This document shows positions 1 to 149 of a stretch of 10,205 bases of DNA, piece after piece. The notes under the pieces were generated by a model that saw nothing but the letters and a program-made list of their open reading frames with translations, was not told the DNA's origin and made no database searches. The position numbers were made by a program, and so were the translations under genes. Source of the DNA: a virus (taxonomy: Duplodnaviria; Heunggongvirae; Uroviricota; Caudoviricetes). Within the stretch, counting starts at the first letter, position 1, and each line of letters begins with the position of its first letter. The stretch lies in the IMG/VR virus record IMGVR_UViG_2917886563_000001; one strand, given 5' to 3'.

Positions 1-149
1 GACCAGAGCCAGAGCCAGAGCCAGAGCCAGAGCCAGAGCCAGAGCCAGAGCCAGAGCCAGAGCCAGAGCCAGAGCCAGAAGAAAAACAGCATAAAAAGCC
101 TGGTCGAAAACCTAAGGCGGCAGCAGATGAACCTGACAACGAAGGGTGA
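1..149 (+). CDS. 3' end of an upstream gene (5' end outside window); C-terminus reads (Pro-Glu)13 followed by [22 protein letters not shown]; function unknown
   Basis: Frame 3 is open from the window edge to TGA at 147-149. Its repeat codons (CCA GAG) are common codons, whereas frame 2 would need 13 AGA codons and stops at 92-94, and frame 1 is the gp4 frame with rare codons before its ATG. By synteny this gene sits where the coat gene or a small post-coat ORF lies in P22-like phages, but its identity is not determinable here. Confidence 0.45.
3..80. repeat. Hexanucleotide tandem repeat (CCAGAG)n, 12 perfect units plus one degenerate unit (CCAGAA)
   Basis: Direct reading: CCAGAG repeats head-to-tail from position 3 to 74, then CCAGAA at 75-80. 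Positions 1-2 (GA) do not fit the unit phase, so the array appears to start at the window edge. The array lies inside coding sequence. Confidence 0.95.

Follow-up and report, generated by a model that had tools for sequence, protein, structure and literature searches.

A hypervariable coding Glu-Pro microsatellite as the linker of P22 Orf69-family proteins in P22-like phages and prophages

Why should a small gene inside a phage head-assembly operon carry a pure hexanucleotide repeat, and in which frame and in which protein is the repeat read? These questions are raised by a 10,205-bp stretch of tailed-phage DNA (IMG/VR record IMGVR_UViG_2917886563_000001; hereafter the window), which makes up the whole of contig PDHX01000034.1 (assembly GCA_004745245.1, Escherichia sp. 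E4736). Read directly from the letters, its (+) strand opens with twelve perfect CCAGAG units at 3..74, followed by CCAGAA at 75..80, and Tandem Repeats Finder applied to the whole window reports a single array (3..79; period 6; 12.8 copies; 100% matches; score 154). Translated in frame 3 it gives (Pro-Glu)13, then a 22-residue tail and a TGA stop at 147-149. Frame 1 would give (Gln-Ser)n and stays open as far as the ATG of gp4 at 127, and frame 2 is closed by a stop at 92-94. A previous reading of the window from its letters and open reading frames (ORFs), here called the sequence-only reading, had described twelve perfect units plus a degenerate one, translated as Pro-Glu and not in frame 2, able to slip in length without loss of frame, and followed by a Lys/Pro-rich tail overlapping the gp4 start. 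These points are borne out by the sequence, by the relatives and by profile matches. Its placement of the tract at the C-terminus of a structural or decoration-like protein is not supported. As the results below show, the array is an in-frame coding microsatellite of highly variable length, and the peptide it encodes is the linker of a protein of the Orf69 family.

Homology assigns the array to a small protein, 76-126 aa long in the relatives, of the family of P22 Orf69 (phrog_1175), in which the tract is the central linker. Full-length relatives match phrog_1175 over profile positions 1-72 of 72 (E 9.4e-37), P22 Orf69 itself (NP_059631) matches with E 4.5e-31, and the window's own 24-aa tail matches positions 53-72 of 72 (E 1.2e-4). 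The peptide that the window would encode in the Gln-Ser frame matched no family in the profile search. The window holds the 3′ part of the gene (1..149, + strand, frame 3), since the contig starts inside the array and the ~150 nt that lie 5′ of the array in relatives, encoding the N-domain, fall beyond the contig end. Its microsatellite (3..80, +) reads A-(Glu-Pro)n-E in the family register, and is followed by a C-terminal tail (81..146, +) that consists of the basic motif KKPGRKPK (93..116) and an acidic end.

A search of 1.84 billion representative proteins returned only 29 relatives, most of them 69-82 aa long and 35-56% identical. Their alignment shows a layout in three parts: an N-domain of ~46 aa with invariant G36, W37 and P41; an acidic linker rich in Pro, in ~60% of family representatives an EP/PE tract; and a basic Lys/Arg/Pro/Gly motif with an acidic end, which persists in distant members, for example as KRGRPPKAA. 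AlphaFold2, run on the family alignment, predicts a beta-hairpin and a helix for residues 1-46 with a predicted local distance difference test score (pLDDT) of ~90, and from the tract onward the pLDDT means of 10-residue blocks are 52-69. P22 Orf69 shares the full-length family match, an N-domain ending GW..HP..LL, and the basic motif GRKPKA before an acidic end; in place of (EP)n, however, its linker consists of nine non-repetitive residues, PVEADDVKP. In a further subfamily (P0132; L117-L120, 2501-3106), the proteins are 195-201 aa long and phrog_3769-like, and at the boundary between N-domain and linker they have acquired a WDGH domain (PF25311, E 1.9e-39), upstream of a short retained EP tract and the basic tail; the slot between coat and gp4 is unchanged. 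Some family members carry the name 'putative dihydrolipoamide acetyltransferase', evidently owing to the Pro-rich linker. The 90%-identity cluster that contains the window's gp4 has as its representative the 195-aa Orf69-plus-WDGH protein P0132, with members of 195-196 aa, apparently an oddity of clustering.

Similarity to Pfam families, BFVD structures and PDB-chain profiles assigned no function to the protein. The Pfam scan of a full-length relative yielded compositional matches only (Trypan_PARP, SPESP1) and no real domain. The first of these (PF05887; E 5.5e-4, 20.4 bits, far below the 100-bit cut-off) reflects the long (Glu-Pro)n tracts of Trypanosoma brucei EP procyclin, which differs otherwise in being a eukaryotic surface coat protein anchored by glycosylphosphatidylinositol. 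The BFVD structure search matched uncharacterised phage proteins only, and a profile search of PDB chains that included the P22 and Sf6 virion models gave 0 matches, although a disordered or sub-stoichiometric protein could escape it. Nothing in these searches speaks for the coat-associated or decoration role that the sequence-only reading had suggested. An AT-hook (PF02178) was considered for the basic motif and rejected: the window's KKPGRKPK lacks the RGRP core, a full-length relative has no AT_hook match at E<=1, and two scores for distant members that do have the core (14.0 and 11.6 bits) are below the 17.4 cut-off. The N-domain also resembles modules with the pattern EL..YL..GW in GIY-YIG/HNH homing endonucleases (phmmer E 6e-6 to 7e-4); hhalign aligns 18 columns only, at 80% probability, and we do not take the likeness as evidence of DNA binding. 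In those homing endonucleases (P0136, P0145, P0147) the motif, as V..EL..YL..GW, is repeated 4-5 times in tandem in the C-terminal regions, and the module has no Pfam family.

The length of the tract varies widely. Among 84 loci of the window's lineage it has 2-16 units with a broad mode at 4-9, and over all relatives the range is 2-29 (maximum in L182). Non-redundant protein clusters run through 76, 78 and so on to 98 aa in steps of 2 aa. All 85 tracts checked are exact multiples of 6 nt in length, and the ORF is open at every length. Eleven groups of loci have identical 2-kb flanks, and four of these differ in copy number (9/9/10/13, 11/14, 9/11 and 5/6 units); of all pairs with identical flanks, half differ. 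Change in the tract thus outpaces the accumulation of point substitutions over 2 kb of flanks. Plaque-forming isolates have 2 units (Bas106), 5 (Dewey) and 8 (APC_JM3.2, IME10), so at least that range is compatible with viability. The locus has the properties of a coding variable-number tandem repeat (VNTR), namely a pure array within an ORF, polymorphic copy number and a preserved frame; it shows no shift of frame or on/off state of the kind expected from a phase-variable contingency locus, the unit being 6 nt.

Different lineages have built the same peptide from different DNA. Four synonymous hexamers, GAGCCA, GAGCCT, GAACCA and GAGCCG, form homogeneous arrays, all encoding Glu-Pro: GAGCCT x29 in L182, GAGCCT x10 in L114, GAACCA x10 in L091, GAGCCA x14 in L132 and GAGCCG x4 in L094. 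The DNA of the array therefore turns over while the Glu-Pro reading is kept. We scanned 1.02 Mb of P22-like DNA for perfect arrays of four or more units of 2-9 nt, 18 nt or longer in total, and found 172, every one a Glu-Pro hexamer array at this one site. Because the sole perfect arrays in this DNA sit here, the array in the window is far beyond chance, and we regard it as a confirmed observation.

In P22-like phages the gene always occupies a single slot. There, a terminator-like element, a GC-rich hairpin with its T-run, comes after the coat stop codon, and is followed by a Shine-Dalgarno sequence, the small ORF and gp4. Hairpin, T-run, Shine-Dalgarno sequence and ATG precede the small ORF in eight of the nine lineages displayed, and L188 has the hairpin without the T-run. 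The order coat, small ORF, gp4, gp10 is kept in 19 divergent lineages, two of which have a coat protein only 27% identical to that of P22, and in the most distant members tested (35-39% identical). The downstream half of this arrangement is seen in the window and the upstream half in all relatives examined. In the window the small ORF ends 23 nt into gp4. Of 124 haplotypes, 120 have an overlap of 17, 20 or 23 nt, and four lineages have none. P22 orf69 has the same position, after the stem-loop downstream of gene 5 and overlapping gene 4. P22 genetics is not known to have identified an essential gene in this slot. Sf6 gene 6 and HK620 hkbT (phrog_3251) are positional analogues with a similar layout, a 61-aa ORF that follows an annotated coat terminator, overlaps the gp4 homologue and has a KRGRK basic motif near its C-terminus; they differ in belonging to another PHROG family, being ~25% identical in alignment and having no EP tract. 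One departure in the neighbourhood was seen in Dewey, where a gene for an HNH endonuclease lies on the opposite strand between scaffold and coat (L003, 1927-2448); it is absent from the other relatives.

Public annotation is divided over the frame of the repeat. The records of APC_JM3.2 and Bas106 and the NCBI Prokaryotic Genome Annotation Pipeline (PGAP) give a separate ORF in the Pro-Glu frame and a 166-aa gp4 (4100-4600 in APC_JM3.2, L001), and PGAP calls such a pair, a hypothetical protein plus 166-aa gp4, in 217 E. coli genomes. Three phage records, those of IME10 (L002, gp4 at 3995-4600), Dewey (L003, 3995-4588) and Louie, instead extend gp4 by ~30 codons upstream through the repeat, which then encodes a (Gln-Ser)n N-terminal extension, and leave the small ORF uncalled. 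The window's lineage would accommodate that scheme, its frame 1 being open from an ATG just ahead of the repeat to the gp4 ATG, but the ATG in question falls within the Asp-Val codons GAT-GTT of the small ORF. Across 124 distinct haplotypes, moreover, a stop between repeat and gp4 ATG shuts the gp4 frame in 22, and 14 others have no upstream ATG in that frame. In 17 of 19 divergent lineages homology to gp4 sets in at the canonical Met itself (residue 1), and in L090 and L091 at residue 6; P22 gp4 is likewise 166 aa long, and the extension peptide is unconserved. The units themselves are telling: GAGCCA, GAACCA, GAGCCT and GAGCCG all read EP and GAGCAA, GAGACA and GATCCA read EQ, ET and DP, whereas in the gp4 frame variant units would read SQ, NQ, SL, SR, SK, RQ and IQ, so that the changes are silent or conservative only as Glu-Pro. 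In relatives, an ORF beginning at GGAG-N7-ATG after the coat terminator runs uninterrupted into the repeat in the Pro-Glu frame, and polymorphic sites in its N-terminal 47 codons number 9, 2 and 17 at codon positions 1, 2 and 3. Synonymous/non-synonymous counts in the short stretch of 49 nt between repeat and gp4 ATG are 2/4 in both frames. The Pro-Glu frame is decisively favoured; the Gln-Ser extension of gp4 is a misannotation, and we give its being real practically no weight. The small ORF is intact in 84 of 85 loci. The exception, L061/L162 (IMGVR_UViG_2684622552_000004, 2501-2542), has a stop at codon 14 with repeat and tail intact downstream and is likely pseudogenised. Equally slight is the chance that the array is an artefact of assembly at a contig end and absent from the organism, a possibility that the sequence-only reading had itself raised. 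The whole contig begins inside the array; its first two bases, GA (1..2, +), are out of repeat phase and unlike the upstream flank of relatives; and the other contig end also falls in repeated sequence, a multi-copy element of the IS3 family of insertion sequences (ISs). None of the 85 relatives has GA ahead of CCAGAG, the flank there being GCAGAG, and GACCAGAG is absent from the array region of all 85; the two bases are uninterpretable and may be an edge error or a variant codon NGA. Both contig ends are breaks at repeated sequence, as short-read assembly would give. Against an artefact stands the array with both flanks at the same site in the isolated phages APC_JM3.2, IME10, HZ41, Dewey, Louie and CurroJimenez_Bas106 and in 217 of 5,426 complete E. 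coli genomes, the count reaching 16 in strain LR-60 (106-aa product), besides its presence in over 100 IMG/VR contigs. The suspicion of a contig-end effect therefore stands for the copy number and the first bases alone, which are unreliable; the array is genuine, and since the contig starts inside it, 13 units is a lower bound.

Two further explanations accept the coding array and differ over what maintains it. According to one, the repeat acts at the level of nucleic acid, as an unstructured purine-rich spacer in mRNA or DNA that sets the delivery of ribosomes to the gp4 start, the peptide being incidental. The gp4 ATG lies 17-23 nt inside the small ORF in nearly all haplotypes, an arrangement that would permit translational coupling; most of the lineages examined have a terminator-like hairpin ahead of the small ORF; and the RNA across repeat and gp4 start (window 1-170) folds no more stably than shuffled sequences (z = +1.35). 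However, the third-position bias of N-domain polymorphism shows the protein to be under selection, conservation of N-domain and tail extends to members of 35% identity whose DNA has diverged, the unit variants keep Glu-Pro and not the nucleotide sequence, and in four lineages the small ORF does not overlap gp4. A role of the repeat in RNA is not supported by structure, coupling to gp4 may still occur, and we consider this explanation highly improbable. According to the other, the locus is an adaptive contingency locus whose pure hypermutable array is kept since rapid change of spacer length is itself selected; reasons suggested are that the reach from N-domain to basic motif is re-tuned for capsid, terminase or host partners, or that a host defence recognises this late protein. 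Pure arrays of four synonymous hexamers in many divergent lineages argue for repeated re-expansion or maintenance of purity rather than decay, interrupting units are uncommon (of 656 units in the close lineage, 589 are GAGCCA, and GAGCCA and GAACCA together account for 623), loci with identical flanks differ in copy number, and ~1 Mb of these phage regions holds no other microsatellite. High purity would be expected from a high slippage rate alone, though, and ~40% of distant family representatives, P22 included, do without an EP array. No phenotype is linked to tract length. On/off switching is the defining behaviour of classical contingency loci, and a 6-nt unit does not produce it. Selection for the variability itself is unlikely on this evidence, if less so than a role in RNA.

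The explanation that we prefer, and consider likely as a whole, is that of a coding Glu-Pro microsatellite, hypervariable and encoding the linker of an Orf69-family protein, as a tolerated, slippage-generated spacer in a protein with a possible accessory role. Slipped-strand mispairing is standard microsatellite behaviour, and during replication it would produce the changes of +/-6 nt. The tract would tolerate these changes as an extended acidic spacer of low complexity that does not depend on its exact length, as suggested by the isolates with 2-8 units, the short non-repeat linker of P22, the WDGH insertion and the low-confidence region of the model. The translation of the small ORF may be coupled to that of gp4. 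Most speculatively, the protein probably assists head completion or DNA packaging as an accessory factor that is not part of the virion, to judge from the strict synteny with coat and adaptor, its absence from the solved P22 and Sf6 virion structures and its basic hook.

TonB offers an analogy for the spacer, having a Glu-Pro repeat followed by a Lys/Pro-rich basic segment, as in the window protein. It differs as a membrane-anchored periplasmic energy transducer, with no homology beyond the low-complexity tract, and its EP region is short and is not known to be a pure DNA microsatellite. The Glu-Pro and Lys-Pro stretches of TonB behave as polyproline-II rods that retain some flexibility (PMC10771500), and on this analogy the stiff acidic spacer proposed in the sequence-only reading is plausible. 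By the same analogy, the spacer of the Orf69-family protein would probably hold the basic motif roughly 1-18 nm from the N-domain. A polyproline-II helix extends ~0.31 nm per residue, at which 2-29 units would span that range and the 13 or more units of the window ~8 nm.

Another comparison concerns position. The gpFI gene of phage lambda is small and lies directly downstream of the major capsid gene and upstream of a head-tail joining gene, much as the small Orf69-family gene lies between the coat gene and gp4. The lambda protein is reported to bridge the capsid and the terminase-DNA complex (PMC13595911). Pfam, structure and PDB-chain searches detected no sequence or fold similarity to gpFI. 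It is conceivable, if quite improbable, that the Orf69 family is the P22-group counterpart of gpFI, with its N-domain on the procapsid or portal vertex, its basic hook on DNA or terminase, and a hypermutable Glu-Pro rod of ~1-18 nm between them. Such a tether, if true, would let populations rapidly re-tune its reach, or escape a sensing host defence, after mosaic exchange of coat, portal or terminase. With bacterial contingency loci and coding VNTRs the locus shares a pure short repeat within a gene and a copy number that differs between near-identical strains; it differs in having a unit that is a multiple of three, which gives no phase switching, and in its carrier, a small cytoplasmic phage protein and not a surface antigen.

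In-frame coding VNTRs with Pro-rich spacers are a known phenomenon, of which this locus is a further case. In the searchable literature we found no publication on the locus, its variability or the function of Orf69; P22 is among the best-studied phages, and yet orf69 stands in its head-assembly operon without an assigned function. The arrays of 2-29 units, the short non-repeat linker of P22 and the domain-insertion variant form a natural length series that can be used to probe the role of the protein. For practical purposes, the repeat breaks short-read assemblies and causes recurrent misannotation of gp4 in public phage records, and as a VNTR marker it could be used for the fine-scale typing of P22-like prophages, themselves found in ~4% of complete E. 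coli genomes.

The genes downstream of the small ORF form a complete P22-type head-completion and ejection module. The head-tail adaptor gp4 (127..627, +; 166 aa) matches Pfam P22_Tail-4 over residues 2-160 (E 6.4e-59) and phrog_637; in APC_JM3.2 the same protein carries the label 'recombinase RmuC'. It is followed by gp10 (628..2046), the needle gp26 (2046..2747), gp14 (2747..3223), gp7 (3201..3854), gp20 (3867..5261) and a homologue of the ejection protein gp16 (5261..7564; 767 aa). The last, which is longer than P22 gp16, has a transglycosylase-like segment at residues 94-198 (phrog_29864) and also matches a 'lytic tail fiber protein' family (phrog_21143). An Arc/Mnt-like repressor of 97 aa (7582..7875, -) is the sole gene between gp16 and the tailspike, an arrangement equivalent to a minimal P22 immI/ant region that lacks an antirepressor gene.

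The tailspike gene (7964..9889; 641 aa) ends near the right contig end. As far as residue 639 its product shares 99% identity with relatives of 707 aa (P0166), and beyond that residue it diverges and stops. Immediately after codon ~639 of the tailspike comes the IS3-family (IS2-like) element (9870-10205); its orfA starts at an ATG at 9946 and is cut off by the contig end. E. coli genomes contain as many as 15 copies of the element. The tailspike has lost its C-terminal 66 residues to the insertion, and because of this loss the prophage copy is probably defective.

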